A DNA stretch of 64,000 nucleotides from Escherichia phage UB: the sequence record MH383160. One strand, given 5' to 3'. The position numbers and the translations under genes are program-made. The notes beneath the pieces are model-generated. The model did no database searches and was not told the DNA's origin. It was given only the letters and a program-made list of their open reading frames with translations. Shown here piece by piece: positions 24,179 through 40,263 of the stretch. Within the stretch, counting starts at the first letter, position 1; each line of letters starts with the position of its first letter.

Positions 24179-24184
24179 TTTTTA

Positions 24185-24568: not shown

Positions 24569-24683
24569 TTTTATAACTCCTATAAGAGATAAATTTTACT
24601 ATAATATTTATAGTTCCGTTGTCATTTATATCGAATGACATAAAACATTATATCATAATAAGAATGGTTGTCCCAAAGTTAAA

Positions 24684-25157
24684 TTAGTACTGATCAAGTT
24701 CAGATGTAAAAATGAATGCATCCATGTCTTCCAACGTAAGTTTTAAGTCTGGTACATACTTAAGAATAACGCACTCTGGCTTCTTAATAGCAGCTTGATA
24801 AGCAGCAATGGCAAGGGATTCCAACTGCTGTGCTGTATAATTTTTACGTTCTGCATTAAAAACTTTGTTTTTGATATCACCACCTGGGAGTTTTTCAAAC
24901 TCACGCATAACTGCAGTAAGAACATCGTCAGCAGTGTTACTATATACCCATTGGGGTAATTGCATTACATTATAAATCACACCACTATCATCCATCAAAG
25001 AGATCCATTTGTACCCATCACTAGCACTGAACAAACGCCCTTTTAGTACTGTGTTATTAGTTAAATTTACAAATGCAAAAATATCTTGTTCGTTAAGTTC
25101 AATACTATTAACATTTACCCAACTCATTACGATTCCCCATTCATAAATCACGAACAA
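24684..25157 (-). CDS. hypothetical protein
   Basis: 157-aa ORF. Confidence 0.55.
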   Translation of the reverse strand: MFVIYEWGIVMSWVNVNSIELNEQDIFAFVNLTNNTVLKGRLFSASDGYKWISLMDDSGVIYNVMQLPQWVYSNTADDVLTAVMREFEKLPGGDIKNKVFNAERKNYTAQQLESLAIAAYQAAIKKPECVILKYVPDLKLTLEDMDAFIFTSELDQY

Positions 25158-25737
25158 TATTCATTAAACACAATTTAGGTTTTATAGCATTCAACACCCA
25201 TATGCATTCTTTGTAAGTAGCTATTATATCATCTAAATGCTCAGTTACAATGCTTTCTTGAAAATATTCTTCATCATTGAGCTTTGCTAATTTAGTAACA
25301 TCACACGTAGGCACTATAGGTCTGGATTGTACACCCATTCCATTATTGATATTAGTGAAATGTACAAAATGGTACTTCACAACACCTTTATCTAGATTTA
25401 TTATACATGACAAATTTTCCAACTCAGTTAGTTTTTTATTACAAGTAACATTAATGAAACCAGCATTATAGGCTCTATAATCATCTACTGATATCTCAAA
25501 ATCATTACGTTCAAATATAAGTGAAATGAGTTGGTCCAGTGGTTTGACATTCATATATTTTAATGAATTTACGTATGATACTTCAATCTTAGATGAAATT
25601 ATCTTTTTACTAAGTGCCGTTAAATCTTTGTTAGATTTAACTGTTAAAACAATAGGTTTAAACCTAGAACTTTTGTTCTTTTTTGATACTTTAAAACGAC
25701 CTTTACGATTCATAATTTCCTCAATTAACAATTTCAC
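25141..25737 (-). CDS. hypothetical protein
   Basis: 198-aa ORF. Confidence 0.55.
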   Translation of the reverse strand: MKLLIEEIMNRKGRFKVSKKNKSSRFKPIVLTVKSNKDLTALSKKIISSKIEVSYVNSLKYMNVKPLDQLISLIFERNDFEISVDDYRAYNAGFINVTCNKKLTELENLSCIINLDKGVVKYHFVHFTNINNGMGVQSRPIVPTCDVTKLAKLNDEEYFQESIVTEHLDDIIATYKECIWVLNAIKPKLCLMNIVRDL

Positions 25738-25942
25738 ATTTAACGTGTGGTTTATATAGCATAATTAACCCATTTTTAAGTACAATGATTGTTGCTCTGT
25801 TAGTAATCGAAACGTTTTTAATTATACTTTTTTTATATGTTTCAACATATTTCTCTTCATAATTTATACATTTAACATATTCTTTTTGTTTAGCACTTAC
25901 AACAGTACTGAATAATATCAGTACAAGTACTATATATTTCAT
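25721..25942 (-). CDS. secreted small protein (signal peptide)
   Basis: MKYIVLVLILFSTVVSA. Confidence 0.55.
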   Translation of the reverse strand: MKYIVLVLILFSTVVSAKQKEYVKCINYEEKYVETYKKSIIKNVSITNRATIIVLKNGLIMLYKPHVKCEIVN

Positions 25943-25994
25943 TACTATACCTTATAAACAAAAAGGAATTCATTTAAGAATTCCTATTTTACAA

Positions 25995-26288
25995 TCATTT
26001 ATCTAACATACCATTGTGCAAACGTTCATATACTTCAGTTCGACGCAAATTCACAATATCTTCTGCGTATTTTAATGTAAATGCCCATGCTTTTGGATGT
26101 ACGTTAAGCTTCATACGAATTCGATTTTTCATCAACTCTCCACTTAAACGAATAAATTCGTGTACACCACGACTACCGTATTCAGTAATTAAATCATTAA
26201 TGTACATATCACGAAGAGTTTCATCTGCACATTCTTTAACCATTTCTACGTCAGCGACGATGCTTTCATTAACTGAAGTACTGATCAT
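25995..26288 (-). CDS. hypothetical protein
   Basis: 97-aa ORF. Confidence 0.55.
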   Translation of the reverse strand: MISTSVNESIVADVEMVKECADETLRDMYINDLITEYGSRGVHEFIRLSGELMKNRIRMKLNVHPKAWAFTLKYAEDIVNLRRTEVYERLHNGMLDK

Positions 26289-26300
26289 TTTTAATTTACC

Positions 26301-26567
26301 TTATTTAAATTCGACTGTAATTTTATCACCTTCAACTACGAACTTACAGTTGTAGCGACGTGCCATATCCATGTACATATGCTCAGAGTACCAAGGAACA
26401 TCAATAATCGGATGCTCTGCATATTGTAGAACTTCACGGTCGCCCACTGTAGTAATGATGAAAGGAATGTTCATCTCTCGTAAAAACAGTTCAGCACCAG
26501 GAGAACGATTAATAAATTCAGTATCATTACGTAAAGTAAATCCATTATATTGTAATTTAAGCTTCAT
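26301..26567 (-). CDS. hypothetical protein
   Basis: 88-aa ORF. Confidence 0.55.
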   Translation of the reverse strand: MKLKLQYNGFTLRNDTEFINRSPGAELFLREMNIPFIITTVGDREVLQYAEHPIIDVPWYSEHMYMDMARRYNCKFVVEGDKITVEFK

Positions 26568-26581
26568 ATGTTATCCTCTAT

Positions 26582-26926
26582 TCAATACCATTCTTTAAAA
26601 CCATTAAGTTCGGCTACGTGAGTGATTATAACACATATAACATTCAGGTCAAGTATAATTTGATCATAATTTAATTTTATACGATCATCATTATATGCTC
26701 TAAAAACTACATCGTAATCAAAGAAATTTGCGTTTTCATCATTCATTGAAACGATTCGGTATCTACGTCTTCCATCTGTATTGAATATAGTTAAACACTG
26801 TTGAAACTTTCTCATTAACTGTTTAGATAGGATATTATAATATTCAATATCTTTTTGTGAATTACGTGGGTCATCAGGAAGATAGAATGAAACAAATTTC
26901 TTTAATTCTATTTGAGTTTTATCCAT
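26582..26926 (-). CDS. hypothetical protein
   Basis: 114-aa ORF. Confidence 0.55.
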   Translation of the reverse strand: MDKTQIELKKFVSFYLPDDPRNSQKDIEYYNILSKQLMRKFQQCLTIFNTDGRRRYRIVSMNDENANFFDYDVVFRAYNDDRIKLNYDQIILDLNVICVIITHVAELNGFKEWY

Positions 26927-27359
26927 ATATTACCTCATGTGTTTCTCTTTTACTTTGTCGGAACTCATCCTTTGCTTCCTTAACTGACATGATACGAACT
27001 AATTTAGCACTACCGCAATAGTACTGAACCTGATTACGACCAATGTCTACATGGTGGTCTGGAACTTCATATACAGATATAGCAAACCCAGCACGATGCA
27101 ATTTACCCAAGTCCATAGTGAAGAATCTGAACAAATCTTTCAAACTTTGACAACCAAATACCCATCCACTTTTGATTGAATAGATCCCATCCTCAGTTGG
27201 TTCAGGTTGGAATTGAGAAGGTGTAGTCATAAGCAAACGGTCAAATCCATTTTTAGTACTGTATCTGGTTGAATACCGTGCAAACGGACCTACAGTTCGT
27301 GCAGGATCTAAGTTAGGTTCAATGTAACTAAATTTAAGTTCAAAACGATATACATACAT
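26919..27359 (-). CDS. hypothetical protein
   Basis: 146-aa ORF, first gene after terminator-promoter cassette. Confidence 0.6.
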   Translation of the reverse strand: MYVYRFELKFSYIEPNLDPARTVGPFARYSTRYSTKNGFDRLLMTTPSQFQPEPTEDGIYSIKSGWVFGCQSLKDLFRFFTMDLGKLHRAGFAISVYEVPDHHVDIGRNQVQYYCGSAKLVRIMSVKEAKDEFRQSKRETHEVIYG

Positions 27360-27387
27360 AATTAAAATCCTCTAATTTATTAAGAGA

Positions 27388-27417
27388 ATTATAACAAAAA
27401 AGGCTGACCGAAGTCAA
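27388..27417 (-). promoter_or_regulatory. promoter in terminator-promoter cassette (TTGACT-N18-TATAAT)
   Basis: Minus strand TTGACTTCGGTCAGCCTTTTTTGTTATAAT. Confidence 0.55.
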
Positions 27418-27420
27418 CCT
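27395..27420 (-). terminator. UUCG-loop intrinsic terminator
   Basis: GGTTGAC-UUCG-GTCAGCC + U6. Confidence 0.7.
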
Positions 27421-27605
27421 TTGTTTTGAAGTTCTTGAACTAATTGTCGTACTTCGTTAATATTTTTACACTGCTTTACAGTGAAGTAATCATACTTACG
27501 ACCATAGGTTCTTGGGTCATCACCTTCCATATACTGCTGCACATCAAAGATTTGTAAGTAGGGATGCTGCATAACACGAATATTATCACTTTGATAAATC
27601 AACAT
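27414..27605 (-). CDS. hypothetical small protein
   Basis: Start at internal ATG 27605 with AAGGATTGA RBS, 4 nt after upstream stop. Confidence 0.5.
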   Translation of the reverse strand: MLIYQSDNIRVMQHPYLQIFDVQQYMEGDDPRTYGRKYDYFTVKQCKNINEVRQLVQELQNKG

Positions 27606-27609
27606 AATA

Positions 27610-27960
27610 TCAATCCTTATATTTACACAAGCCACCAAAACTAGTTTCTTTAGCACCACGACGCATCATAACTAATTTAGCATATTGTGTGCCATTACTA
27701 TCTTCATATACATCTACTTCAATAAACGCTAAGAAGTTAGGGTCTGTGTCGTTAGAAAACTCAGTGAAGCTAATGTCGCCTACTGTATGCTCTTTAACAA
27801 ACGTATATGATTGTCCATCAATATATACAATATCTCGATCGTCACTATCACCTTGATAGATATGTTTAATATTACCATCTGTACAAACTAAACCTTCCAA
27901 TGGTTCAGCATATGACAATCCACACATTAACATACATACAAAAAATAAAATAATTTTCAT
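27610..27960 (-). CDS. secreted protein (signal peptide)
   Basis: MKIILFFVCMLMCGLSYA. Confidence 0.6.
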   Translation of the reverse strand: MKIILFFVCMLMCGLSYAEPLEGLVCTDGNIKHIYQGDSDDRDIVYIDGQSYTFVKEHTVGDISFTEFSNDTDPNFLAFIEVDVYEDSNGTQYAKLVMMRRGAKETSFGGLCKYKD

Positions 27961-27962
27961 GA

Positions 27963-28340
27963 TTATTTTCCTCCAACGTTAAGTGATTTCTTGTACTGAT
28001 ATTCTTTATAAGTACTATACCATATATCACCAACGTAAATCAAGTACCACGTAGCAGGATAAAGAGCCAATCCAGTACTGATGTATACGAACTTTTGGTC
28101 AAGGACATCAAATACATACAGAAGGAAAGTTACTCCCATAATGCAAGAACAAATTAACCACAAGTTATAAGCAATCGAATCGCAAGCAAAAATAGAATCA
28201 AGCTTAGAAATTAGGACATATTTGTTTGTTAAAATGAAATGAATTACTGCAACTAAACAATATCCTGCCATAAAAATAGAAATTAAAAAAGACAGAATAA
28301 TTGGAATATTCAACAACAAAAGTAAAATAGTGTTTACCAT
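27963..28340 (-). CDS. small membrane protein
   Basis: Hydrophobic 125-aa ORF. Confidence 0.6.
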   Translation of the reverse strand: MVNTILLLLLNIPIILSFLISIFMAGYCLVAVIHFILTNKYVLISKLDSIFACDSIAYNLWLICSCIMGVTFLLYVFDVLDQKFVYISTGLALYPATWYLIYVGDIWYSTYKEYQYKKSLNVGGK

Positions 28341-28350
28341 TTTTTAAGTC

Positions 28351-28710
28351 CTATATTTCACAGTGTAAGTTCAATTTATCTATATCTAGGTCACGGCGTA
28401 CCGATGAGTCCAAGTAAATTACTATATAGATATCACCATTACCAGTTCTTGGGTCTACAATTAATATTACGTTTGCTAATGTACCAGAATCATCTCTATA
28501 AGTCGAGATTTTTTTATTACCGATAATACTTTCTACTTTAAAACGATAAATCACACCATCAACAACTATATTTTTACCATTTCTAGGGTCGTTAGTCAAT
28601 ACATGCCACGTTCCCTTAGTACTACGACAATATGTTTCTGCTGCTGCACCATAACTAAAACATGAAAATAATGCACACACAAGTGCTATTAATTTTATAT
28701 AACTCTTCAT
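28351..28710 (-). CDS. secreted protein (signal peptide)
   Basis: MKSYIKLIALVCALFSCFSYGAAAE. Confidence 0.6.
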   Translation of the reverse strand: MKSYIKLIALVCALFSCFSYGAAAETYCRSTKGTWHVLTNDPRNGKNIVVDGVIYRFKVESIIGNKKISTYRDDSGTLANVILIVDPRTGNGDIYIVIYLDSSVRRDLDIDKLNLHCEI

Positions 28711-28788
28711 AACAAACCTCTAACGAGAAATACTTCTGTACATATATATAGTACAGAAGTATTTAATACTATAGAGATATTTTCACTG

Positions 28789-29115
28789 TTACATCTTATT
28801 CGTGAACTTGAATTTGATAATATCAATCCAAATTTTAACATTTCCTGCAAATAGTGCTTTGATTAGCCACATAATTGCAACAAAGTTCTCAACTAAATCC
28901 AAAGTTTTAACTACTGCACCGAGTGGGAAGATAAAACTCAAAACCCATACAATTACTGAAACCACAACGACTGCATAGAAAATACGCACAATCGGTGAAT
29001 CAAGCATAAACAACTCAGAGAACTCTTTTTTATCATTATCATCAGTAATGAAGCATTCGTAAACCAGAAGCCAAATCAGAATTAAAGACGGAATTGAAAT
29101 TAGTACTGATAGCAT
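28789..29115 (-). CDS. small membrane protein
   Basis: Hydrophobic. Confidence 0.6.
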   Translation of the reverse strand: MLSVLISIPSLILIWLLVYECFITDDNDKKEFSELFMLDSPIVRIFYAVVVVSVIVWVLSFIFPLGAVVKTLDLVENFVAIMWLIKALFAGNVKIWIDIIKFKFTNKM

Positions 29116-29172
29116 ATTTTTTACCTCAAGTTTAAGTGTTAAGTTTCAGACTACAGGAACCATTATACAGTA

Positions 29173-29415
29173 CTACGAACGTTTGTCAACATTTGTTTCT
29201 TCAATAAGCATAAGATAACTTAACACGAAGAGTAATACCGAAATAATATCAATAACTGTAAAGCTCACTGGAATGATAATAGACACCAGTACTAATGCCA
29301 CGTTTAGCAAGAATACAGTAGTGAGATCTACCATCGTTCGTCTAGTTGCTAATGCCACTAGTGTAGGATAGAACATAAACAATAGTGCAACAACAAAACT
29401 TAGTACTAGATACAT
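29173..29415 (-). CDS. small membrane protein
   Basis: Hydrophobic 80-aa ORF. Confidence 0.55.
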   Translation of the reverse strand: MYLVLSFVVALLFMFYPTLVALATRRTMVDLTTVFLLNVALVLVSIIIPVSFTVIDIISVLLFVLSYLMLIEETNVDKRS

Positions 29416-30086
29416 TTCTTTTTCACCTTAATAAAATTATAACACAAAACCACATCAACATCTGGCTCATCATACAAGTACTCAAAACGTTCTTTACTTC
29501 GTTTAGTACCGATATACTCACCATTCTTATGCCAACGCCATCCACCATCCTTTGGTTGTTCAGACTTCAGTACTGGGTGATAGCACAGGACAATTTCTTC
29601 TGGACCTTCAATTAGGTTCTTGTACTTATTCATAATCTGTTCAAGCGTATCTGCTACACCATAAGATGGATGCATAAGATAAGACTCAGGACGTGGACGT
29701 CCACTTGGTAGAATATCATCAGTACTATTAAAGATAGCACGGAAGTCTTCAGATGTGTATAGACTTCCATCTTCATGGATCATTGGGTATTCATCCACGA
29801 CATCGTAATCAGTGAAGTGTTCAATTGCATGTGCAGGTCGATAACCTGCAAGGATACCTGCATGTTTAGTCTGGACAATAGTCATAACAGATGTATTGTT
29901 GTTTACATTTGGATCATGAATTTCAGCCCAAAACGGATGATTTGGATCAAAAGTTGCATTTACCAATGTACACTCACCAATGTAGTCAAACATAGTTTCC
30001 TTGAAGTTTAAAGAAACTCCACGTAATGCCCAGTCAGGTGAAGTGATGAAATTAAGATTAACTAACATAAGTATCCTCAGATGCAA
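29406..30086 (-). CDS. hypothetical protein
   Basis: 226-aa ORF; no motif I can assign. Confidence 0.6.
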   Translation of the reverse strand: MHLRILMLVNLNFITSPDWALRGVSLNFKETMFDYIGECTLVNATFDPNHPFWAEIHDPNVNNNTSVMTIVQTKHAGILAGYRPAHAIEHFTDYDVVDEYPMIHEDGSLYTSEDFRAIFNSTDDILPSGRPRPESYLMHPSYGVADTLEQIMNKYKNLIEGPEEIVLCYHPVLKSEQPKDGGWRWHKNGEYIGTKRSKERFEYLYDEPDVDVVLCYNFIKVKKKCI

Positions 30087-30100
30087 TTTTTTTGATGTGG

Positions 30101-30316
30101 TTATTGTATCAAAGATGTATCGATTTGTACAACATTTATTGTAACTATTTCGTACATATAGTCAGGTGCATTGAACTCAGCATACCACTCAATGATCTCA
30201 CAAGCAGCATCAACTTGGTTGTTCGCATTAACACGTCTTGCATAGGTACTAGACATTTTATATCTACCATTTACATACACGTTATATACACCATGACACC
30301 ACCACATCTTAGTCAT
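30101..30316 (-). CDS. hypothetical protein
   Basis: 71-aa ORF colinear with block; preferred over opposite-strand 30092..30325. Confidence 0.45.
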   Translation of the reverse strand: MTKMWWCHGVYNVYVNGRYKMSSTYARRVNANNQVDAACEIIEWYAEFNAPDYMYEIVTINVVQIDTSLIQ

Positions 30317-30527
30317 TTATACTAGGCCATACTTTGTATTGTAAGTTCTGGTATTGAAATTTACCAATTTCATTTTTCTTACGGAATGATTCATCTACTT
30401 GAATTTCCGCATCGTACTGACCATCAGCCTGTACAACGTACTTAAATTCTTCTACGTGTGAAAAACGTTGACCTTCACCTTCTGGTTTATAGACTTGTAC
30501 TAAACCTTCAACTAGATATAAATTCAT
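30309..30527 (-). CDS. hypothetical protein
   Basis: 72-aa ORF. Confidence 0.5.
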   Translation of the reverse strand: MNLYLVEGLVQVYKPEGEGQRFSHVEEFKYVVQADGQYDAEIQVDESFRKKNEIGKFQYQNLQYKVWPSIND

Positions 30528-30530
30528 TTA

Positions 30531-30752
30531 TCATTCCTCATCACTTTCAGTTAGTATAATGCTATGTACAGCTTCCACATAGCGGTGTGTTTTGGGTGTG
30601 TTATACTTTGTAATTTCATCAAACAATTTAAACAGTGCATCTACTTCACTAAGAGCACGAATGAATACATCCATCTTGGTGACTACTCTGGAAAACCCGC
30701 GTATGTTATTAAATTCAGAGACGTGTTCATACACAACATAGTATCTATTCAT
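30531..30752 (-). CDS. hypothetical protein
   Basis: 73-aa ORF. Confidence 0.5.
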   Translation of the reverse strand: MNRYYVVYEHVSEFNNIRGFSRVVTKMDVFIRALSEVDALFKLFDEITKYNTPKTHRYVEAVHSIILTESDEE

Positions 30753-31267
30753 ATATTAAAAAGTTCCATGAATTCATTGAATAAAGAAGTTCTAATGCAC
30801 ATAACAAATTCAAAATCAACATCGATGGTGTCAAGTAGTTTGAACAACTTTGGTACTAATGGGTCATTCACCTCAAAGTTATGAATCAAACTTTGTTGAA
30901 ACACATTTTCTTCAGTACTATAATCAATAACAAAATATTCAGCAATACCAGGTGGTGTGTAAACATCATATAAAATATGGCGGTGATGATTTGTTTTAGA
31001 ACTAGGGGAATATATAAGTTCTATTTCATAAGATTTATCAGCACTGCGTGCGTAACAAACAATATCAGTACTCGTTATTTCTGAACCATCACTTCTCTCT
31101 GAAAAACAAACATCAGCATAGCGTTTTCCAGAGAGATTCAAAAGGTCATGAGTTGTTTTACCATAACAGAAATCAGTTTCAATGCGTATCACATCTTGAT
31201 ATTCAATTGGTCTTGTATCGCGGCGTTCACGATTAAACACTAATTTCAACAACTCATTAATATCCAT
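30749..31267 (-). CDS. hypothetical protein
   Basis: 172-aa ORF. Confidence 0.6.
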   Translation of the reverse strand: MDINELLKLVFNRERRDTRPIEYQDVIRIETDFCYGKTTHDLLNLSGKRYADVCFSERSDGSEITSTDIVCYARSADKSYEIELIYSPSSKTNHHRHILYDVYTPPGIAEYFVIDYSTEENVFQQSLIHNFEVNDPLVPKLFKLLDTIDVDFEFVMCIRTSLFNEFMELFNI

Positions 31268-31467
31268 TACTTAGTCTCAATAACCTTTAGATTTACAAAG
31301 TCACCTTTAACCTTCATACATTTGTATTCAGTGCGAGATTCATCACCAGCATCACGAGGCCAATGAGTTGCAGAGTAACACTGATCAGGTGTTTTATATA
31401 CACCTTCACCAACGGTGCGAGTGATTTCACCATTAGTTAGTACTACTGCAAGATATAAAGTAAACAT
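31267..31467 (-). CDS. hypothetical protein
   Basis: 66-aa ORF. Confidence 0.5.
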   Translation of the reverse strand: MFTLYLAVVLTNGEITRTVGEGVYKTPDQCYSATHWPRDAGDESRTEYKCMKVKGDFVNLKVIETK

Positions 31468-31618
31468 ATTAGTCCTTAGAATAATTTATTAATAATAATA
31501 GCACCCAACGCAAGAACTGCAATAATTACAGATACCCACATTACTGCATTCACTGTACCAGTAAGTTCTTTATCAAACTCCCTGCACTTCTTGCGGTAAT
31601 CTTCCCACTCTTTGTTAT

Positions 31619-31834
31619 TCACACTGCCACTCCTAATAGGTCGGTAGCTTTCTTGAGTACTACGTCAATGGTTTCCAGTACTGCACCTTTGTGTTCAATT
31701 GATACAATATTATTATAAGTATCAAGGTCCAAGTACTCCATATATTCAGTTTTGAATACACGAACATCAGTACTAGTGATTTTAATATCACAACCTTTAT
31801 CCCAAATAACCTGCATCATTTCATTGGTAGTCAT
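31619..31834 (-). CDS. hypothetical protein
   Basis: 71-aa ORF. Confidence 0.5.
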   Translation of the reverse strand: MTTNEMMQVIWDKGCDIKITSTDVRVFKTEYMEYLDLDTYNNIVSIEHKGAVLETIDVVLKKATDLLGVAV

Positions 31835-31837
31835 TAT

Positions 31838-32110
31838 TCAACCTTTATCATAAACAAGTTTGTGTGTGCTTAGTACTTTGTTGTGATGTCCAGGGCATTC
31901 ATATACATACAATCGCTCCTGTCGTTTTTCCCAACCACCACAGATACGGCCTGATTGTGTACATACCTCATACTCGTTAATAAAAGACTTACCTGTGAAT
32001 GTACAATCCTGACGAACTAAGTCTTTTGCACTAAACCTGCCGTCATCATTACATGCTGTAAGAAACATTGTACTGCACACAATGATTCCAGTCAAGAGTT
32101 TTTTAATCAT
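31838..32110 (-). CDS. putative lipoprotein
   Basis: Signal peptide with lipobox-like LTAC (MIKKLLTGIIVCSTMFLTACNDDG). Confidence 0.6.
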   Translation of the reverse strand: MIKKLLTGIIVCSTMFLTACNDDGRFSAKDLVRQDCTFTGKSFINEYEVCTQSGRICGGWEKRQERLYVYECPGHHNKVLSTHKLVYDKG

Positions 32111-32475
32111 TTAACATCACCCCAACGGAATCCATTCATATAATTCAAATTCACCTCAACGAGTTCATTTGTTTTTGTACACCAAATTGATAGAGTTTTT
32201 GTAACATCACCAGGTGAACTTTCATACTTCACACAATACCCTTCAATGCGAAGAGTTTTGTTAGTCCAATGTTGCCACTCAATCCAAATTTCATTAGGAT
32301 AATAAACCATATCTTCCTTGAACCTATGGTATTGATCCATCGGTAAGTGACCTTCAACTTCAATTACTTCAGCACTTCGAACAAGTTTGTCAAGCTTGTA
32401 CTTTATCTCAGCAAGATATTCTTCATCATTCAGACGAGTTAATAAATCTGCTGCACGTGTTGTATCAAGGCTCAT
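32107..32475 (-). CDS. hypothetical protein
   Basis: 122-aa ORF. Confidence 0.55.
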   Translation of the reverse strand: MSLDTTRAADLLTRLNDEEYLAEIKYKLDKLVRSAEVIEVEGHLPMDQYHRFKEDMVYYPNEIWIEWQHWTNKTLRIEGYCVKYESSPGDVTKTLSIWCTKTNELVEVNLNYMNGFRWGDVK

Positions 32476-32477
32476 TG

Positions 32478-32723
32478 TTATTCTCCATGAATTACGGAAG
32501 TGTTGATTCGTGTTTTACCGCTAGTGTATCCAGTACTGGTATTTGCATTAGGGCAATAAACTGTATACAAGGTTACGCCAGCACCATCCTTTTGCATACG
32601 ATAAATCTTACATCCTGCTTCTTGTAATTCAATAGGGAGAATAAAATCACTTGTGCGTTCTTTGGTTGAAGCATCACATGCAGTGAGTAAAAATGCGACG
32701 AGTACTGCTACAATGTATTTCAT
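32478..32723 (-). CDS. putative lipoprotein
   Basis: MKYIVAVLVAFLLTACDAS (lipobox LTAC). Confidence 0.6.
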   Translation of the reverse strand: MKYIVAVLVAFLLTACDASTKERTSDFILPIELQEAGCKIYRMQKDGAGVTLYTVYCPNANTSTGYTSGKTRINTSVIHGE

Positions 32724-33031
32724 TAACGAACCTCCACTTCTTGAGAAAGAGCATGAGTCAGTGCATTTGAATTCGAACTATTCATTTCACGCTGACATAC
32801 AAACATAATGGCATCTTGTACTGAACCTGCGATTTCATACTCACGACCTTCTGGATCAGTTACCAGATGTTCAACGATACAACCACCACGCAGTACAGAA
32901 GCACCAGTACTTACACTAATTCTGTAACCTAAGAAATCAAACTGCATACATGCGTCAGTAGGTTTCATCCAATAACCGCTGTTTTGATTCAAATCGATGA
33001 TTACAAAACCTTGAGTGTTAGTTTGAAACAT
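32723..33031 (-). CDS. hypothetical protein
   Basis: 102-aa ORF. Confidence 0.55.
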   Translation of the reverse strand: MFQTNTQGFVIIDLNQNSGYWMKPTDACMQFDFLGYRISVSTGASVLRGGCIVEHLVTDPEGREYEIAGSVQDAIMFVCQREMNSSNSNALTHALSQEVEVR

Positions 33032-33125
33032 AGTTAATTCCTCATTTAATTTAAAAGGGCGGGAACGCAGTGACGAGTACGATTATGCTGTCTTTCCTTT
33101 CACTGCATTCCCTTTTATATAAAAC

Positions 33126-33154
33126 ATAATACTGCTATTATTCAGTACTGTCAA
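33126..33154 (-). promoter_or_regulatory. sigma70-type promoter TTGACA-N17-TATTAT with GTACTG element
   Basis: Minus strand TTGACAGTACTGAATAATAGCAGTATTAT. Confidence 0.55.
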
Positions 33155-33444
33155 TCGATATAAGTACCTTTTTTAACATCACAGACTTCTTCCATCCAAT
33201 GTGGATTTTCGTTTTTATCAGTGAAGATTTGTTCTGCTTCTTCTTTTGTTTCAGCTAGGACAATACGATCCCCTTCATCCAAATCACGGATACGATACAC
33301 TTTCAGTTCTTGTTTCTTCTCAAGAATATTACACAGTTCACGTGCTTTTTCTTCATCGCACTTCCCTTCATTAGCATAAAACCAAATTGCTTTTTTAATA
33401 AGGTCACGTTCTTCTTTAGAAAAAGACATAATATTTCCTATCAT
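33151..33444 (-). CDS. hypothetical protein
   Basis: 97-aa ORF. Confidence 0.55.
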   Translation of the reverse strand: MIGNIMSFSKEERDLIKKAIWFYANEGKCDEEKARELCNILEKKQELKVYRIRDLDEGDRIVLAETKEEAEQIFTDKNENPHWMEEVCDVKKGTYID

Positions 33445-33474
33445 TTGTTAAAGTGGATTTCGTTTGATATAAAC

Positions 33475-33502
33475 ATTATACAGTACTGATATCTTATGTC
33501 AA
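33475..33502 (-). promoter_or_regulatory. sigma70-type promoter TTGACA-N16-TATAAT with CAGTACTG in spacer
   Basis: Minus strand TTGACATAAGATATCAGTACTGTATAAT. Confidence 0.6.
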
Positions 33503-33598
33503 GTATTAATCACCAAAAACCATCAGATACCCAAACCAACCCACACAGACGACTAAGCTAACAATACCAAAGACAATCTCTAAAGTCATGTTGTATCC

Positions 33599-33817
33599 TT
33601 AATCAATGATTTTATATTCACGATGACCATAGAATCCAGCCTCAAGGATGCGATTACCATCAGCATCTTCCAAATCCCACCCACGGGATGTTTCGGCAAT
33701 AATAGTCATGATGTGACCTCTTGGGAAAATTCCACTCATGGTGGATACATCTTCAAGTAATTGAACTTTCTTACCAACATTGGAATTCGGTTTAAACATT
33801 TTATGGCCCTTATTCAT
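33599..33817 (-). CDS. hypothetical protein
   Basis: 72-aa ORF. Confidence 0.5.
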   Translation of the reverse strand: MNKGHKMFKPNSNVGKKVQLLEDVSTMSGIFPRGHIMTIIAETSRGWDLEDADGNRILEAGFYGHREYKIID

Positions 33818-33992
33818 TGATCACATCAAGTACTTTATCCAGCTTTTTACCAATGCTTTCCTTTGGTTTCTCACCATTCTGGAATACATTAGTACTGCAA
33901 TATTCAGGACGCGTATTAGGAAACTTCTCGTTCATCCATGAGTGACCATAAACACCCAACATGATACCAACGATAAGAATGATGATTTGCAT
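33810..33992 (-). CDS. small membrane-anchored protein
   Basis: N-terminal hydrophobic segment. Confidence 0.5.
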   Translation of the reverse strand: MQIIILIVGIMLGVYGHSWMNEKFPNTRPEYCSTNVFQNGEKPKESIGKKLDKVLDVINE

Positions 33993-34007
33993 GATAATTT
34001 CCTCTGA

Positions 34008-34796
34008 TTAAATGTTAGTAGTATAGTACTTGATTTCGTGTTGAATTGCAAGTTCTATTTGTTTATTGAAAAGAATTCCAAACTCTTTGATTGATTCACA
34101 ATCGAATTCAATAGAAAAAGTATACTCTGGTACACGTAGATTGTCAATCCCCAAATACTCTTTTATGTAAATTTTAATGAGTTTACATAGTGCAGTACTA
34201 AGACATTGAATTTCAAAATGTTTTGCACCTTTGTCAAAATACTTGAATGCATCAATATCACCTACAATAAAACTATTCTTTAATGTAGTGAATAGGTTCT
34301 CAGGAAACACGGTAATAGGTGACATTGATTTAAGAATGTATGTATCTTTGGCATTCTTAATGTACTCAATGAAGCAGTAGTTAACGTCAGGCTCGATTGA
34401 ACGATCCGCGTTATGATACCAGTGTTTAAACTCACTGTATTCAGCAAACTTATGCTGGCGTAATGCGTTACATTCTTCACACAGTGCAGTCATGTTCTCT
34501 TTATCATTACCGCCCTGAAGACAGTCCAGTACATTATGGTCTAACGTCATGCGTACAAGGCGTTTCCCTTTAAGTACATAAGGTCTGAATTTATAACGAT
34601 CTTTAGTACTGTGCTTGTGTAAAGTGAATACTACATTTGATTCACCACAACAATCACATTTAAAGCCATCACGTGACATTACATGAATGAGTTTGCGTGT
34701 GTTCGGTCCAAACTCAGATTTAGTAATGTTATCCACAATTTCTGATGGTTGGTAATATTTTGAATTCCGTTGAATCAGTTCATCGATAGTGCCCAT
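34008..34796 (-). CDS. HNH endonuclease
   Basis: HNH core TLDHNVLDCLQGGNDKENMTALCEECNALRQ. Confidence 0.75.
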   Translation of the reverse strand: MGTIDELIQRNSKYYQPSEIVDNITKSEFGPNTRKLIHVMSRDGFKCDCCGESNVVFTLHKHSTKDRYKFRPYVLKGKRLVRMTLDHNVLDCLQGGNDKENMTALCEECNALRQHKFAEYSEFKHWYHNADRSIEPDVNYCFIEYIKNAKDTYILKSMSPITVFPENLFTTLKNSFIVGDIDAFKYFDKGAKHFEIQCLSTALCKLIKIYIKEYLGIDNLRVPEYTFSIEFDCESIKEFGILFNKQIELAIQHEIKYYTTNI

Positions 34797-35027
34797 TTAC
34801 ATTATTCCTTCTATGCAACAACCAAGAATTACTTTTTTAACTTCAACAACTCGTACCAAATAGAATCCATTTGAAAAGTTAAAACTATACATTTGTACTA
34901 AGGCATCTGCTTCAGATTTCGCACGTATACATGATAGATAAATTTCACGTATATCACCATCTAACGATACTTGTTTCTCTGCATCAATGACAATAGAACG
35001 AATCTCAAAACGAACACCATAACTCAT
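34797..35027 (-). CDS. hypothetical protein
   Basis: 76-aa ORF. Confidence 0.5.
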   Translation of the reverse strand: MSYGVRFEIRSIVIDAEKQVSLDGDIREIYLSCIRAKSEADALVQMYSFNFSNGFYLVRVVEVKKVILGCCIEGIM

Positions 35028-35233
35028 TGAGTTTGTCCTACAATAAGCTTTGTGTTAGTATTACTATTGTAACACCACATTTGTTCTTTATTAACTGTAA
35101 TCCAAATATCTTTGTTTACTTGTTCGTATGTACTATCACGTACTGCTATACATTGATTCATGGAATTCATTGGGGTTATTTGTACACCGGAATTAACAGA
35201 AAAAGCTATTACTAAAAAGATTACTGAATTCAT
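35024..35233 (-). CDS. secreted small protein (signal peptide)
   Basis: MNSVIFLVIAFSVNSGVQ. Confidence 0.5.
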   Translation of the reverse strand: MNSVIFLVIAFSVNSGVQITPMNSMNQCIAVRDSTYEQVNKDIWITVNKEQMWCYNSNTNTKLIVGQTQ

Positions 35234-35297
35234 TGGATATTCCTTAATGGTTAATCATCCATCTCTTCGAGATGTCTGTTCGCTTCTAATACTACGT

Positions 35298-35326
35298 ATT
35301 CTACGCGAATGATTAATAACTGTCAA
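35298..35326 (-). promoter_or_regulatory. sigma70-type promoter TTGACA-N17-TAGAAT
   Basis: Minus strand TTGACAGTTATTAATCATTCGCGTAGAAT. Confidence 0.5.
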
Positions 35327-35339
35327 GGACTTTTAATAT

Positions 35340-35820
35340 TGACGGGATTTGAGGAAGGGATTTTTCTTCCCCCCACAAGGAGGGAAATTTGACGCTGATG
35401 GTATCAGAGCTATTGCATTGAAGATTACTCATAAAGAGTGCGAAAGCGGGTCATCCTGTTTCTCTCTACTTCAGTTTCATATGACGGTCTACACTTTTAA
35501 ACATAGTGTATCTTCATTAAGTATCTATGCAATCAAATACTTAATGTGAGTACTCAAATTTTGGACGCAACTTTCCTGTACAAAATTCGATAACTCTCCC
35601 TTAGATAATTCGTAAGGTGTTATCCTTATATGTCTATCAAGGAACCACCAGCTATCCTAACGTGGTTCTTTATACAGCCGCATTGCCGTGAGGGGTTCAA
35701 ACTATGCCCACATCTAACGGGTTTCTTTTGCTGTTCGCACTGTCGGACTGCTCAACTGCCCTCTACGTTTTCGAGTGGATCAGGTACATAAATATCATGC
35801 CAACAGAATTGTACAAGATA
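35340..35820 (-). ncRNA. candidate structured non-coding RNA (unclassified); strand inferred from promoter
   Basis: ~480 bp with no credible ORF, visibly G+C-richer than surrounding DNA, bracketed by an extended -10 promoter and the next gene's promoter. Confidence 0.3.
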
Positions 35821-35850
35821 ATTATATCACAAACTTTTACTTCATCCCAT
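35821..35850 (-). promoter_or_regulatory. extended -10 promoter (TGATATAAT) reading into the ORF-free block
   Basis: Minus strand TTTGTGATATAAT immediately after the sigma-gene terminator. Confidence 0.4.
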
Positions 35851-35876
35851 AAAAAAAGGTTGGCATAAGCCAACCC
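35851..35876 (-). terminator. intrinsic terminator hairpin, bidirectional
   Basis: GGTTGGC-ATAA-GCCAACC flanked by A7 and T5. Confidence 0.65.
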
Positions 35877-35883
35877 TTTTTCT

Positions 35884-36849
35884 TTAGAAATCTTCGTATT
35901 CGTACCCTTTTGCAAGTACTAGCTTCTTAAGCTTTTGCATAGCTTCACTGTACTTTCGATGTATTGATGAACGGGATTTAACATATTTTCCATTATCATC
36001 AACAAAACCATTATCAGCAATCTCACGAAGCGTTTCAGGTTCATATTCACCTAGACCATGAACACGCTGGATAATCTCACGTTCTTTAGTACTCAATTCG
36101 TTAGTCAGTTCATTGATAGCATAACGTAAAGGTGCACGAATACTATCAACATTGAGGTTAAAATCAGAAGCAGGTGAATGAATAATGTCACCTAGTGTAC
36201 CATCGGTAACACCGTCTAATGGTGCATCCAGCGAAGTGTATTCGCTTTGAAATAACAAACAGTTATTAACATGCTGAATCTCAATCCCAGTACCCTCTGA
36301 GATTATTTCAGGAGTTGGGCGAACACCATGTTTACGCATATATTCCTGACAGAATCTTTTTACTTTGATCTTATGAACACTCATATAACGTGGGAAGTGT
36401 ACCATATAGTTAGCGTCAGAACTTTCGTTATAGACTGTCATGTAAATACTAGAAGAAGCATAGGTAATGAACTTAACATTCTTATTAAGATCAAAGGTTT
36501 TTAGTGCTCTCATGAACCCCTCAACACCATATGAAATCTTATCTTCAAATGGGATATAACAAGTACATTTACTTGCTACATCAATAATCAGTCCATAATT
36601 GTAACGAACTAACAGTTCAGTGTTTTTCTTTACATTGATACCAGCTTGAATATCACGAATTAGATCTTCATTGGAAACATTTGGTGGTCGCTTAAGTGTA
36701 ATATTATATTTGAAACTGCTTTGTACTTTACCTTCATTTTCATCTTTATCTTCAACGAAATCTAAGGCTTCTAGTGTGTTGACTTCTTCATTAGCAAAAC
36801 ATTCATCCAGTACTTCTTCGGCAATTGTATTTAAATCAAGCTTTTTCAC
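35884..36849 (-). CDS. sigma-70 family RNA polymerase sigma factor (phage-encoded)
   Basis: Region-2-like ISYGVEGFMRALKTFDLNKNVKFITYASSSIYMTV and region-4-like KEREIIQRVHGLGEYEPETLREIADN; GTG start with TAGGAGATG RBS. Confidence 0.8.
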   Translation of the reverse strand: MKKLDLNTIAEEVLDECFANEEVNTLEALDFVEDKDENEGKVQSSFKYNITLKRPPNVSNEDLIRDIQAGINVKKNTELLVRYNYGLIIDVASKCTCYIPFEDKISYGVEGFMRALKTFDLNKNVKFITYASSSIYMTVYNESSDANYMVHFPRYMSVHKIKVKRFCQEYMRKHGVRPTPEIISEGTGIEIQHVNNCLLFQSEYTSLDAPLDGVTDGTLGDIIHSPASDFNLNVDSIRAPLRYAINELTNELSTKEREIIQRVHGLGEYEPETLREIADNGFVDDNGKYVKSRSSIHRKYSEAMQKLKKLVLAKGYEYEDF

Positions 36850-36870
36850 TTACATCTCCTAATGACGAAA

Positions 36871-37368
36871 TCAAAATCGATATACATTAATATTATCATC
36901 TGTGAAGCAATCATGGTTGTGCACATCCATGAAAGTACTAAACACTTTATCATATAAAGTTGTATGTTCTTCATGAATAGCAGCATCTAGCATGTATTCT
37001 CCACCACTTCCCATAAAGAAAGTGTAGTCTTCATGTAGATATTCAAGTTTTTTAATAAACTTTCCTTTAGTTAAAATCATATGAATAACATAATCTTTAG
37101 AAAGAAGCACACAATGGCAACTTAACTTTCTGTCAGGTATAACTGGTACTTTATTAATTAACCAATCCAGTACTTTATCAATTTCACTTACTACCCCACT
37201 AGCACTGAATAAACGGTCATGTACATATAAAGTTTTTTGATTAACAACTCCATATTGATATTTTGGTCTTAGTGGGAAAAAACCAAATAAGTTTCGTGGT
37301 ATAGTTGACGTAACTCTAGAATCGGTAATCAATAAATTTAATCGTTTATCAATATAAACAGTTGTCAT
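36871..37368 (-). CDS. hypothetical protein
   Basis: 165-aa ORF. Confidence 0.6.
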   Translation of the reverse strand: MTTVYIDKRLNLLITDSRVTSTIPRNLFGFFPLRPKYQYGVVNQKTLYVHDRLFSASGVVSEIDKVLDWLINKVPVIPDRKLSCHCVLLSKDYVIHMILTKGKFIKKLEYLHEDYTFFMGSGGEYMLDAAIHEEHTTLYDKVFSTFMDVHNHDCFTDDNINVYRF

Positions 37369-37369
37369 A

Positions 37370-37789
37370 TTAAACCTTATCTAAGAATTTATCGTATATA
37401 TAAAATTCTTTATCGGTGAATACATTAATTCTAGTATCGAATCTTTGCATTGTGTTCATATACAATGAACTTTTTAAATAAAAATACAAAGCAACAAATT
37501 CTGATATATGCATATTCTTTTTATTGTTACATAAATTCTTAAGCATTTTGATGCTATCAAATTCTTTTTCATCAAATCTGTATTGGTAAAAATTGTATCT
37601 ATTGGAACGGCACTCATAGATACGAAGTGCCATTATATCAATACATGCTTTAGATTTACAGTACTTATTCAATACGTCATAATCACCCGTACATAATGCT
37701 ACAAAGATTCTATGTGCGAGTGTAGCTTTGCCTTCAATCGTATAATAGCCAAAAAATTTAATGATTAAGTACTGAATGAATGTAATCAT
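37370..37789 (-). CDS. hypothetical protein
   Basis: 139-aa ORF. Confidence 0.6.
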   Translation of the reverse strand: MITFIQYLIIKFFGYYTIEGKATLAHRIFVALCTGDYDVLNKYCKSKACIDIMALRIYECRSNRYNFYQYRFDEKEFDSIKMLKNLCNNKKNMHISEFVALYFYLKSSLYMNTMQRFDTRINVFTDKEFYIYDKFLDKV

Positions 37790-37794
37790 TTGAT

Positions 37795-38055
37795 TTAGAA
37801 TTTCTCCGAAATTACTAGAGTGTCATCATAATCTTCTGCAATATCATGAAGAACTTTTAAGTTACTTTCACCAGAAACGCTTTTTACTTCGTTCAAAAGA
37901 TAGTTTAGATCAACTTTAGTTACTTTTTCTGAATCAAACACACAGAAAGTTAATTCAGCGTTTGGACAGATCTTCTTCAGATTATCAGCAACAACTTGTT
38001 TGAAGTTGAAAGATGGGGAAGCAACCAGGTTAACTGCAACGAGAATAGATTTCAT
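37795..38055 (-). CDS. hypothetical protein
   Basis: 86-aa ORF. Confidence 0.55.
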   Translation of the reverse strand: MKSILVAVNLVASPSFNFKQVVADNLKKICPNAELTFCVFDSEKVTKVDLNYLLNEVKSVSGESNLKVLHDIAEDYDDTLVISEKF

Positions 38056-38129
38056 AATGTTTTCCTTTTTAGCTGATAATTAAATTAGGAGCACATTGTA
38101 CTCCATATTATTTGTTATGTCAAATACTT

Positions 38130-38381
38130 TTAGATACCAAGTGCAGTAGATAACTCTTTACGTTTGTTATATGAATCAGATTCAATCTTACTTTTCTTGT
38201 TGAAAAGGGATTCGATATCCTTATAGATTGCTTCGATAGATTTAGTTACTACCCATTCTGATTCTTGAAGCATACCTTGGAGTCGTGCGTACTCAACTTT
38301 GATAGTACTGCGAAGTTCTTCACAAACTTCTTCATTCTTAATTAGTGCAGCACTAAGTTCTTTGACCTTATCGATGTTCAT
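38130..38381 (-). CDS. hypothetical protein (predicted helical)
   Basis: 83-aa ORF. Confidence 0.55.
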   Translation of the reverse strand: MNIDKVKELSAALIKNEEVCEELRSTIKVEYARLQGMLQESEWVVTKSIEAIYKDIESLFNKKSKIESDSYNKRKELSTALGI

Positions 38382-38440
38382 AAGTTCCTTACTCTAATTT
38401 GTTTTTAACAAAATAATTATATATAACATACTAAATTATG

Positions 38441-38866
38441 TCAAGTATTTTTAGTACCTTCTTCTGCCATTTTTGTGATATACCAATTAAGTATTGATTT
38501 GTGTACCATAAAAAATGTGAATGCAAATATAGCAATAGCTGCTGATGTAACACTATTAGATAATGACCCAAGTTGGATGTTAGTACCTAAAATAACAATA
38601 AATGGATACAACACAATCAATCTACTGTAAGGTTCGTCTCCAGTATCACGGAGAAATCCAAGCCTTTCATGATCAGTATCCATAGTGACAATTGGACAGA
38701 ACATAAGTGCAGACATAAGAGCAATACCAATTTGTGCTACATTGGAAATTGTAAACCACAAAGGATTTAAACCATATGAAATATTATTTTCTGTACAGTA
38801 GTAACCAAACGAATTGAATGCACAAACTAAAAATACAAAAATACAAATCTTATTATAGCCTCTCAT
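38441..38866 (-). CDS. multi-pass membrane protein
   Basis: Hydrophobic 141-aa ORF. Confidence 0.6.
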   Translation of the reverse strand: MRGYNKICIFVFLVCAFNSFGYYCTENNISYGLNPLWFTISNVAQIGIALMSALMFCPIVTMDTDHERLGFLRDTGDEPYSRLIVLYPFIVILGTNIQLGSLSNSVTSAAIAIFAFTFFMVHKSILNWYITKMAEEGTKNT

Positions 38867-39285
38867 TTGTTTAGCTCCGTTAATTTTCGTTTAACTTCTA
38901 GATCATGAAACTCATCGGCATATGAGTTTTGAACAGTTCTGATGTATTCCAACATAACAAACATAGTTCCACATACCCATAGATATGTATAGTAATCAAA
39001 TACAAATGCATATAACATACACGGTACTAAAATGAAAGTGTAAACAAAACTATATCGTGTAGTTCCAAATACTTTCAGATATAACAAACGTCGATAATCA
39101 CGGGCAAATGTATTGATGCACACTGAAAATGTAATTAATGTATACCATGAAATACCCTGAATTAAACCTGAAACATTTAAAAGTTTATGTTCATCGGAAA
39201 ACCCCAGTGCATTTAGCACTGGAGCCATAACCCAACCAATAATACTAATAAGAAAAAGATATTTTGCATTACTTAGTGTGAACAT
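38863..39285 (-). CDS. multi-pass membrane protein
   Basis: Hydrophobic 140-aa ORF. Confidence 0.6.
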   Translation of the reverse strand: MFTLSNAKYLFLISIIGWVMAPVLNALGFSDEHKLLNVSGLIQGISWYTLITFSVCINTFARDYRRLLYLKVFGTTRYSFVYTFILVPCMLYAFVFDYYTYLWVCGTMFVMLEYIRTVQNSYADEFHDLEVKRKLTELNK

Positions 39286-39286
39286 A

Positions 39287-39745
39287 TTACTTTAGTCCCC
39301 ATGCTTTTTTGATTGCATCAACAGAGTTTTGGTCCACTACTTCCTTTTTTTCTGATGTAGTTTGAAGTTTATTAATTACATATTCCTTTGCATCTTTTTC
39401 TATCATAAATTTACCATCAACCAACACACCAAAAACTTTAGAATTTCGGGCTGGATATGGATTAATTTCATCAAGAGTACGGACTTTCTTATCAACTATA
39501 ATGGCTTTGATGTAACCAGTTTCAAGTACTGTTGTAATCACAGTCATTTCAATTGCAACTGGTGAATCTTCCCAATACGCAATCCATTTAGTAAAGCTAC
39601 GATCAGGTGAATCTTTTGTGCATTTTAATTTAATTGCACTATTAAAAATGTATTGTTTAAAATTGTCATCGACAACTTCACTAATACTAAAATAACCTTC
39701 ACGCTCTTCAACATTACGTTTGAAATTTGTAGCTAATACATCCAT
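39287..39745 (-). CDS. hypothetical protein
   Basis: 152-aa ORF. Confidence 0.6.
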   Translation of the reverse strand: MDVLATNFKRNVEEREGYFSISEVVDDNFKQYIFNSAIKLKCTKDSPDRSFTKWIAYWEDSPVAIEMTVITTVLETGYIKAIIVDKKVRTLDEINPYPARNSKVFGVLVDGKFMIEKDAKEYVINKLQTTSEKKEVVDQNSVDAIKKAWGLK

Positions 39746-39786
39746 TTTCCATCCCCCTTGGGTTACTTGGTGTGTTAATTATAATA

Positions 39787-40263
39787 CTAAGAATCTTTGT
39801 TGTCAAACTTTTCCCTCAAATATTTTTCTATTAATCTAATTTGTGTTGGTGGTAAGATAAAGTAATCGTACATAGATTTACTACCATGTATCGAACAACC
39901 TACACTAATACTATAATCATATGGATATAAGTATATTGGATCTTGTATATCAGGTATGAAAACTATTCTTGATATATTACCATTTCCTATTCTTACTTGG
40001 ACGTTATCATTATTATTAATATAATTTCTTATACAGTACTCAATTATACCATTTACTTTAGAATCATAACCATAATTTTTATATTCAGGAAAAATGAAAT
40101 AGCGTTCATGGTATAGATATGAGCATAGTAATGCTGGGAAAAAATTCCAAAAACCTTCATGCTTTGCAATTGTTTGTGCATATTTAAAATGATTAGCATT
40201 ACTAAAAATATTATACAGCACAAAATACACAAATGGACTTACCAACAACACTATTGTTAACAT
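39787..40263 (-). CDS. membrane-anchored hypothetical protein
   Basis: N-terminal hydrophobic segment. Confidence 0.55.
   Translation of the reverse strand: MLTIVLLVSPFVYFVLYNIFSNANHFKYAQTIAKHEGFWNFFPALLCSYLYHERYFIFPEYKNYGYDSKVNGIIEYCIRNYINNNDNVQVRIGNGNISRIVFIPDIQDPIYLYPYDYSISVGCSIHGSKSMYDYFILPPTQIRLIEKYLREKFDNKDS

Follow-up and report, generated by a model that had tools for sequence, protein, structure and literature searches.

The stretch of Escherichia phage UB DNA analysed here (sequence record MH383160; 64,000 nucleotides (nt), hereafter called the window) contains two small minus-strand genes whose products, designated LpA and LpB, have the appearance of lipoproteins. The surrounding segment, from position 30000 to 36000, is 96-98% identical to the Asteriusvirus Escherichia jumbo phages slurp01, SP27, 121Q, PBECO4, phAPEC6 and G17 (98% for slurp01/121Q), an identity that assigns the window to an Asteriusvirus jumbo phage. 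LpA (31838..32110) is a predicted prolipoprotein of 90 amino acids (aa) belonging to PHROG 31263; LpB (32478..32723), predicted to be of the same kind, has 81 aa and belongs to PHROG 902. The N-terminus of LpA reads MIKKLLTGIIVCSTMFLTA / C20-NDD and comprises a KK pair, 12 uncharged hydrophobic residues and the sequence LTAC20. Application of lipobox rules defines a signal peptide of residues 1-19 (32054..32110, minus strand), followed by the codon of Cys20, the predicted site of lipidation (32051..32053), and by N-D-D. The corresponding segment of LpB reads MKYIVAVLVAFLLTA / C16-DAS, with one K, 10 uncharged hydrophobic residues and LTAC16. Here the predicted signal peptide spans residues 1-15 (32679..32723, minus strand) and the predicted lipidated residue is Cys16 (codon at 32676..32678), immediately followed by Asp17, the +2 residue, which is invariant in an alignment of nine sequences.

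Lipoprotein signals were scored by the presence of a positively charged N-region, a hydrophobic stretch of 7-22 residues, a lipobox of the type [LVI][ASTVI][GAS]C and a Cys at position 15-35. LpA and LpB show all the sequence features of signal peptidase II substrates, including a Cys within this interval. When the 141 likely genes of the window were screened with a rule in the style of PROSITE PS51257, four were selected; a stricter rule, L[ASTVI][GAS]C, selected LpA and LpB only. Neither rule matched any of 206 off-frame open reading frames (ORFs). Residue-shuffled proteins gave 0.30 matches per window with the PROSITE-style rule and 0.0055 with the strict one, and in 2000 shuffles the observed counts were never attained. 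A preliminary description of this DNA had reported two ORFs with signal peptides ending in LTAC; both are indeed present, on the minus strand, in large excess over the chance expectation of the strict rule.

The orthologues of both genes are annotated as coding sequences in related phages. Comparison with phage vB_Ec-M-J yielded ratios of nonsynonymous to synonymous substitution rates (dN/dS) of 0.21 for LpA and 0.10 for LpB. Thus, LpA and LpB are genuine, conserved genes under purifying selection. The lipobox Cys, Cys20 in LpA, is invariant in every alignment of either family, and the two products are very probably exported lipoproteins. Phage phAPEC6 annotates neither gene: the corresponding sequences (MK817115.1, 36656..36926 and 37296..37542) fall in the gaps between gp057c and gp058c and between gp058c and gp059c. 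Because of this omission, the published virion proteome of phAPEC6 could not have detected either protein. The missing annotation, together with the fact that the lipobox assignment rests on sequence rules, could be taken to mean that the two ORFs specify uncleaved anchors, arise from chance matches or are not expressed. This we consider very improbable in view of the shuffling statistics, the persistence of the lipobox Cys over hundreds of diverse homologues, the signs of purifying selection, and the Shine-Dalgarno sequences and translational coupling described below.

LpA and LpB belong to a packed run of genes starting at position 33031, in which a 102-aa gene is followed by LpB, then by a 122-aa gene and LpA, and these by a 71-aa gene and others. 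The first of these (32723..33031, minus strand; PHROG 26720, function unassigned) encodes no signal peptide, and its stop codon overlaps the LpB start codon in the sequence TAATG. The gene between LpB and LpA (32107..32475, minus strand; PHROG 22236), whose product has neither a signal peptide nor a membrane segment, overlaps with its stop codon the LpA start in the sequence ATGA. Both lipoprotein genes are preceded by Shine-Dalgarno sequences. The intergenic gap ahead of the operon contains a near-consensus sigma-70 promoter (33126..33154, minus strand; TTGACA-17-TATTAT, 11 of 12 positions), 95 nt upstream of the first gene. Throughout the window, matches of at least 11 positions out of 12 to the sigma-70 consensus number 31 on the minus strand and one on the plus strand, against 2.9 +/- 1.6 expected from a Markov control; ten of the 31 promoters, in the minus-strand block 12500..64000, are perfect (12/12). 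Most matches lie 27-100 nt upstream of minus-strand start codons, though intergenic DNA makes up only 10% of the window. Because some three matches would be expected instead of 31, and one of them directly precedes the LpA/LpB operon, the whole block of about 50 kb looks like a set of early transcription units of the host polymerase, and early transcription of LpA and LpB by host RNA polymerase is a reasonable inference. The preliminary description had placed the genes in an early region, a claim to which the promoter excess lends indirect support; no Asteriusvirus transcriptome was found in the literature. Elsewhere in the block, a terminator-like hairpin (27399..27422, minus strand), with a 10-bp stem followed by a run of T residues, overlaps an 11/12 promoter (27417..27388) and may mark the boundary of a transcription unit.

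The genes in the vicinity of LpA and LpB specify small hypothetical proteins, an HNH endonuclease and a phage sigma factor. This context bears on whether the two proteins might participate in lysis, as an outer-membrane spanin of the Rz1 type (o-spanin) or a unimolecular spanin. Small lipoproteins with periplasmic Cys residues would suit such a role, and one family member weakly resembles LysC/Rz1 in Pfam (E=0.036). None of the neighbouring products of 102, 122 and 71 aa has a hydrophobic segment, so that there is no adjacent or embedded inner-membrane partner (i-spanin). In addition, the C-termini of LpA and LpB are hydrophilic, with no membrane segment, neither a holin nor an endolysin gene is found nearby, and the promoter context is early. 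The LpB homologues of phages wV8 and W70 and of Vibrio phages likewise have no spanin partner. Gene context thus effectively refutes a spanin identity, to which we assign a next to negligible probability.

The mature part of LpB consists of 65 aa and contains the motifs LPxEL, CKIY and V(V/Y)xCPN and two invariant Cys residues, C38 and C57. LpB matches PHROG 902 with E=4.9e-13 at full length and E=4.5e-6 without the signal peptide. Searches with tblastn found it in 579 phage records; the family is present in Asteriusvirus, Felixounavirus and Vequintavirinae-type phages, in Vibrio Demerecviridae and in Acinetobacter, Yersinia and Aeromonas phages. The core motifs are kept across phages of Escherichia, Salmonella, Vibrio, Acinetobacter, Yersinia and Aeromonas with differing tail types. 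An exhaustive profile search produced 285 representative clusters (50% identity), all composed of small proteins. One of these clusters, P0001, bears the name "Uncharacterised protein [Escherichia coli]" and lies on a 351.6-kb contig. A lipobox was found in 145 of the 150 best representatives and a signal of the signal peptidase I type in three of the other five, so that export is a conserved property of the family. The consensus of the mature part reads LPxEL..DCK(I/V)Y…L.VV.CPNS.T.T…GK. In the family alignments, C38 and C57 are invariant and P30, P58 and K70 nearly so, and the Asp following the lipobox Cys (C-D-A) is invariant in nine sequences. A structural model computed with AF2 (AlphaFold2) from a 95-sequence alignment depicts LpB as a small, mostly beta domain (predicted local distance difference test score, pLDDT, 71), the strand pair 39-44/51-56 being bordered by C38 and C57.

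When the genomes of 185,579 species were scanned with a stringent motif, a single bacterial locus with the LpB core motif emerged, and a search of plasmids gave no real match. Thus, the LpB family is essentially phage-borne. The bacterial locus, in Hylemonella gracilis ATCC 19624 (NZ_AEGR01000062.1; L014:5001-5249), has the sequence LAGC/D…VVRCPNSST. A repressor-like gene lies nearby and the other neighbours are uninformative; the locus may be part of a prophage or mobile element. In phages wV8 and W70, in a Vibrio T5-like phage and in Yersinia phage Yen9-04, the LpB homologues lie near genes for DNA polymerase, ligase, an origin-binding protein, an ATPase, or kinase and phosphatase. In Acinetobacter phage 3098, no gene next to the homologue could be assigned to a function. 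A preprint (10.1101/2024.12.31.630880) reports that the persistent "virulent" phages detected in E. coli assemblies belong most often to two clusters, Vequintavirinae and Asteriusvirus. Both carry LpB-family genes, a loose correlation only.

LpA has a narrower distribution. Its mature part, of 70 aa, contains four Cys residues (C36, C50, C57 and C72), and the match to PHROG 31263 is strong with the signal peptide (E=2e-60) and without it (E=2.1e-49). The 41 phage records identified by tblastn all belong to Asteriusvirus-like phages or to related Salmonella and Klebsiella jumbo phages. The distant homologues of EJP2 and Munch keep the lipobox, the stretch AK.L....C.YTG.SF and the motif YVY.C. 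They have no middle Cys pair; the equivalents of C36 and C72 are kept in LpA, EJP2 and Munch alike. Among LpA relatives, the lipobox Cys is followed by N-D-D, D-D or E (C-N-D-D, C-D-D or C-E).

The motif LY.V.CP is common to LpA and LpB, and LpA weakly matches PHROG 902 (E=0.02). The possibility that the two are paralogues was rejected, as BLASTP gave E=0.31 and hhalign of the mature parts a probability of 1.2%. A conserved two-lipoprotein module was discarded as well: in EJP2, the homologues are separated by about 30 genes. The syntenic block of EJP2, a divergent Asteriusvirus, encodes a third, unrelated lipoprotein of 81 aa (L010:4356-4601), MKFISAIILSMTLLVGC / S…, with Ser at +2. Its presence points to a turnover of lipoprotein genes in this region.

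LpA and LpB are already in databases as uncharacterised PHROG families. Neither protein scored above the family cutoff for any entry in Pfam, NCBIfam or PADLOC. Identity with the TrbK entry-exclusion lipoprotein was rejected, since the score was 14.3 bits against a cutoff of 23 and the match rests on the signal peptide. The label PF16225 (PF16225.11), which a precomputed Pfam column attaches to every LpB hit, was not reproduced by direct hmmscan against Pfam-A, either with 60 family members at E<=1 or with LpB and P0008 at E<=10. Two other labels are found in GenBank records. Both orthologues are named "lytic conversion lipoprotein" in phage fEgEco12, and that of LpB is named "Cor superinfection exclusion protein" in vB_Ec-M-J. 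Full-length LpB does match the Cor family (PHROG 1119) weakly over residues 1-50 (E=7.7e-4), and full-length hhalign comparisons with T1 Cor and T5 Llp gave probabilities of 89-93%, with alignments dominated by the signal peptide. Mature LpA and LpB had no Cor or Llp match at E<=10, and the hhalign probabilities fell to 3% for Llp and 0.2% for Cor. Because the profile matches disappear when the signal peptides are removed, homology to Cor and Llp was rejected and the two labels are judged to be signal-peptide artefacts. The LpB model had no structural match in the PDB, though Llp is present there (8a60_B, 7qjf_A); the family profile aligned with 8a60_B over residues 1-18 only (E=2.9). Searches for Imm or Sp homology in PHROG, Pfam and NCBIfam gave no match at E<=0.1-1.

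These comparisons weigh upon a role in masking an outer-membrane receptor in the manner of T5 Llp, as the preliminary description proposed, or of the Cor proteins of T1 and phi80, a role that the fEgEco12 and vB_Ec-M-J labels imply. LpA and LpB do belong to the same general class, being small, Cys-containing, probably early and, by prediction, lipidated, and to this extent the analogy with Llp drawn in the preliminary description holds. Besides the labels and the full-length scores, the Asn at +2 of LpA would direct this protein to the outer membrane by the simple sorting rule. Receptor masking specifically is not upheld. The similarity is confined to the signal peptide, the Llp fold is not recognised in the LpB model, and the invariant Asp at +2 of LpB is replaced by Ser in Llp and Cor. 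Moreover, no tail or receptor-binding gene adjoins LpA or LpB, the disulfide layout differs, and the LpB family spans phages unable to share a receptor. Overall, receptor masking appears improbable. Flagella have been suggested as the receptor for the Asteriusvirus SHEFM2K (PMC11895373); no established Asteriusvirus receptor was found in the literature.

In E. coli, retention of lipoproteins in the inner membrane is signalled by Asp at +2 and occasionally at +3 (PMC6469965). We predict on this basis that LpB is retained in the inner membrane and hence departs from the outer-membrane sorting of Llp and Cor. An inner-membrane location is suggested by the Asp at +2 of LpB and by the N-D-D, D-D or E of the LpA family, signals that predict such retention in Enterobacteriaceae. 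We tentatively propose, with limited confidence and by analogy with other phages, that LpA and LpB may be inner-membrane-tethered periplasmic lipoproteins that block a post-adsorption step of secondary infection. Soon after infection, host RNA polymerase would transcribe the two genes from the promoter at 33154..33126, within the translationally coupled operon. The products would be exported by Sec, lipidated at Cys20 and Cys16, respectively, and cut by signal peptidase II, and their conserved Cys pairs would form disulfides in the periplasm. Held at the inner membrane on its periplasmic side, with no transfer to the outer membrane, they would most likely act on a conserved envelope component and keep the genome of a secondary phage, once adsorbed, from crossing the periplasm or inner membrane. 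Such a mode of action would be like that of T4 Imm/Sp, HK97 gp15 or the Gram-positive Ltp and unlike the jamming of outer-membrane receptors by Llp and Cor. Export, the lipidation signals and a periplasmic domain rich in Cys residues suited to disulfide formation are well supported. The early timing, the disulfides themselves and the inner-membrane location are what we infer from sequence features, while the exclusion function is a guess made by analogy.

Several observations weigh against this proposal. Members of the LpB family differ at +2, with D in 37, S in 28, E in 23, T in 16 and G in 12 of 145, and the Felixounavirus members, which have the same hosts, carry Asn at this position. The membrane location of the family may therefore be unconserved or unimportant. 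In LpA, N-D-D is ambiguous with regard to sorting and is not a canonical retention signal. The confidence of the LpB model is only moderate, every annotated homologue of LpA or LpB is called "hypothetical" or "lipoprotein", and the distance between the EJP2 homologues indicates that the two do not form an obligate pair. No functional data on these genes were found in the literature. Finally, these facts would suit many other roles in the periplasm equally well.

Foremost among these other roles is that of periplasmic host-takeover factors, which would inhibit or redirect a conserved envelope protein or structure of the host, with no part in exclusion. Candidate targets include peptidoglycan or division enzymes, Tol-Pal or Lol components, envelope stress sensors, membrane-anchored defence sensors and regulators of lysis timing. 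The strong conservation of the LpB motifs among phages with differing hosts and receptors points to a conserved host target, and in six lineages the genes are surrounded by others of early function or replication. The takeover role would also be in keeping with the many further secreted and membrane proteins encoded in the window and with the lack of similarity of LpA and LpB to known exclusion proteins. On the other hand, no similarity to a known inhibitor or host-interaction domain was detected in Pfam, NCBIfam, PADLOC or the PDB. We regard host takeover as possible, if rather unlikely, and as only slightly less probable than the post-adsorption block proposed above; the present evidence does not separate it from exclusion at an entry step.

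The spread of the LpB core motifs over hosts and tail types favours a conserved target over a variable surface receptor. A broader conjecture, which we consider unlikely, is that the LpB family is an early effector in the periplasm which many virulent phages share and which has escaped recognition, directed at one conserved envelope target of Gammaproteobacteria on the inner-membrane side. If this were true, the family would constitute a generic block on entry, defence sensing or envelope response, unlike every characterised exclusion lipoprotein, and might have a share in the persistent (carrier-state) infections that have been described for Asteriusvirus and Vequintavirinae.

The window also encodes other potentially exported proteins, whose signal peptides were called by a heuristic procedure. 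The preliminary description had counted at least eight such ORFs in addition to the two lipoproteins. Six looked convincing and two (35024..35233 and 33810..33992) doubtful, and the earlier count is thus no more than approximately correct. All six lie on the minus strand. A small ORF at 12603..12929 has a predicted classical signal of the signal peptidase I type (MKKLMLVMLMCLSTTVNA / K). Classical signal peptides were assigned to the small ORFs at 25721..25942 (MKYIVLVLILFSTVVSA / K; PHROG 31284) and 27610..27960 (MKIILFFVCMLMCGLSYA / E; PHROG 27330) and to the ORF at 40263..40724 (…VAVLFGTSCFIYPVHA / EEQ; PHROG 36332), and a probable one to that at 38441..38866 (MRGYNKICIFVFLVCAFNSFG / Y; PHROG 22013). 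The product of the small ORF at 28351..28710, with the signal peptide …ALFSCFSYGA / AAE, fits the loose lipobox rule and looks more like a signal peptidase I substrate than a lipoprotein. By the same heuristic, a dozen or more further ORFs have N-terminal membrane anchors as opposed to cleavable signals.

From about 8.2 kb to 64 kb, the genes of the window are with few exceptions small and encoded by the minus strand. The preceding segment (33..8222, plus strand) contains seven tandem paralogues encoding proteins of 267-401 aa with RCC1-repeat / beta-propeller sequences (PHROG 4219; Pfam RCC1, WD40_RLD), two of which also weakly match a "tail protein" PHROG. On the minus strand, two adjacent pairs of genes (11008..11358 and 11346..11687; 18915..19262 and 19266..19604) specify similar small proteins with N-terminal membrane segments and look like tandem duplications of membrane protein genes. 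A 487-aa protein encoded at 12950..14413 (minus strand) contains a CapR homology domain (Pfam PF21817, E=2.2e-23) and matches PHROG 681, "endonuclease". Two genes, at 21747..23294 (minus strand) and 41646..42800 (plus strand), match "virion structural protein" PHROGs (20398 and 10468, respectively) within a block that otherwise looks early; the latter is the sole sizeable plus-strand gene inside the minus-strand run.

Most of the content of jumbo-phage genomes is unannotated, and genes that can be placed by cell compartment and time of expression provide useful starting points. LpB defines a large, conserved and phage-specific lipoprotein family, whose members are small and readily testable. 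The labels "Cor superinfection exclusion protein" and "lytic conversion lipoprotein", which are spreading in Asteriusvirus records, are not to be relied on. If the LpB family were to block secondary infection or alter the envelope, cross-exclusion might occur in therapeutic cocktails combining Felix-O1-like, rV5-like and jumbo phages, which matters for their design, and the finding would bear on persistent infections as well. If it did neither, LpA and LpB would be an ordinary pair of hypothetical genes.

Among known systems, the closest in general character is T5 Llp. Among the early lipoproteins of virulent coliphages, it is the only one to have been studied well, and it is an exclusion factor. 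Like LpA and LpB, Llp is a small periplasmic lipoprotein (about 60 aa in mature form) of a virulent coliphage, made early and containing a disulfide, the last two features being presumed for the UB proteins. Llp has the sequence C-S-T and resides in the outer membrane, whereas LpB begins with C-D-A. The llp gene adjoins the receptor-binding gene pb5, a type of neighbour that LpA and LpB do not have. Furthermore, the disulfide of Llp joins its termini (Cys11-Cys58), whereas in the model the Cys pair of LpB flanks a central hairpin. The Cor family (T1, phi80, N15, HK022) also consists of small phage lipoproteins; these begin with C-S-S and are encoded in the tail-fibre region, whereas LpB is encoded among small, probably early genes. 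Small siphoviruses encode proteins of the Llp and Cor type together with their cognate receptor-binding proteins. The o-spanins (Rz1 and those of the T4 PseT.3 type) share with LpA and LpB a small size, a lipoprotein character (predicted for the latter two) and periplasmic Cys residues. They differ by their i-spanin partner and lysis cassette, neither of which accompanies LpA and LpB, by the early-promoter context of the latter and by the Asp at +2 of LpB.

The systems invoked for the mode of action are of a different kind. T4 Imm acts at the inner membrane and T4 Sp inhibits the tail lysozyme; neither masks receptors, although the preliminary description had cited both, beside Llp, in support of receptor masking. 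Together with HK97 gp15 and with Ltp of Streptococcus phage TP-J34, they block genome entry after adsorption, from the outer face of the cytoplasmic membrane or from the periplasm. No PHROG match links Ltp, Imm, Sp or HK97 gp15 to LpA or LpB. Ltp is itself a lipoprotein, and its mode of action is likened to that of LpA and LpB as a proposal only. Ltp and HK97 gp15 come from temperate phages, Imm is membrane-spanning, and Sp is soluble and cleaved by signal peptidase I. LpA and LpB are set apart from the characterised early phage lipoproteins by their fold (as modelled for LpB), their predicted membrane location and their genomic surroundings.

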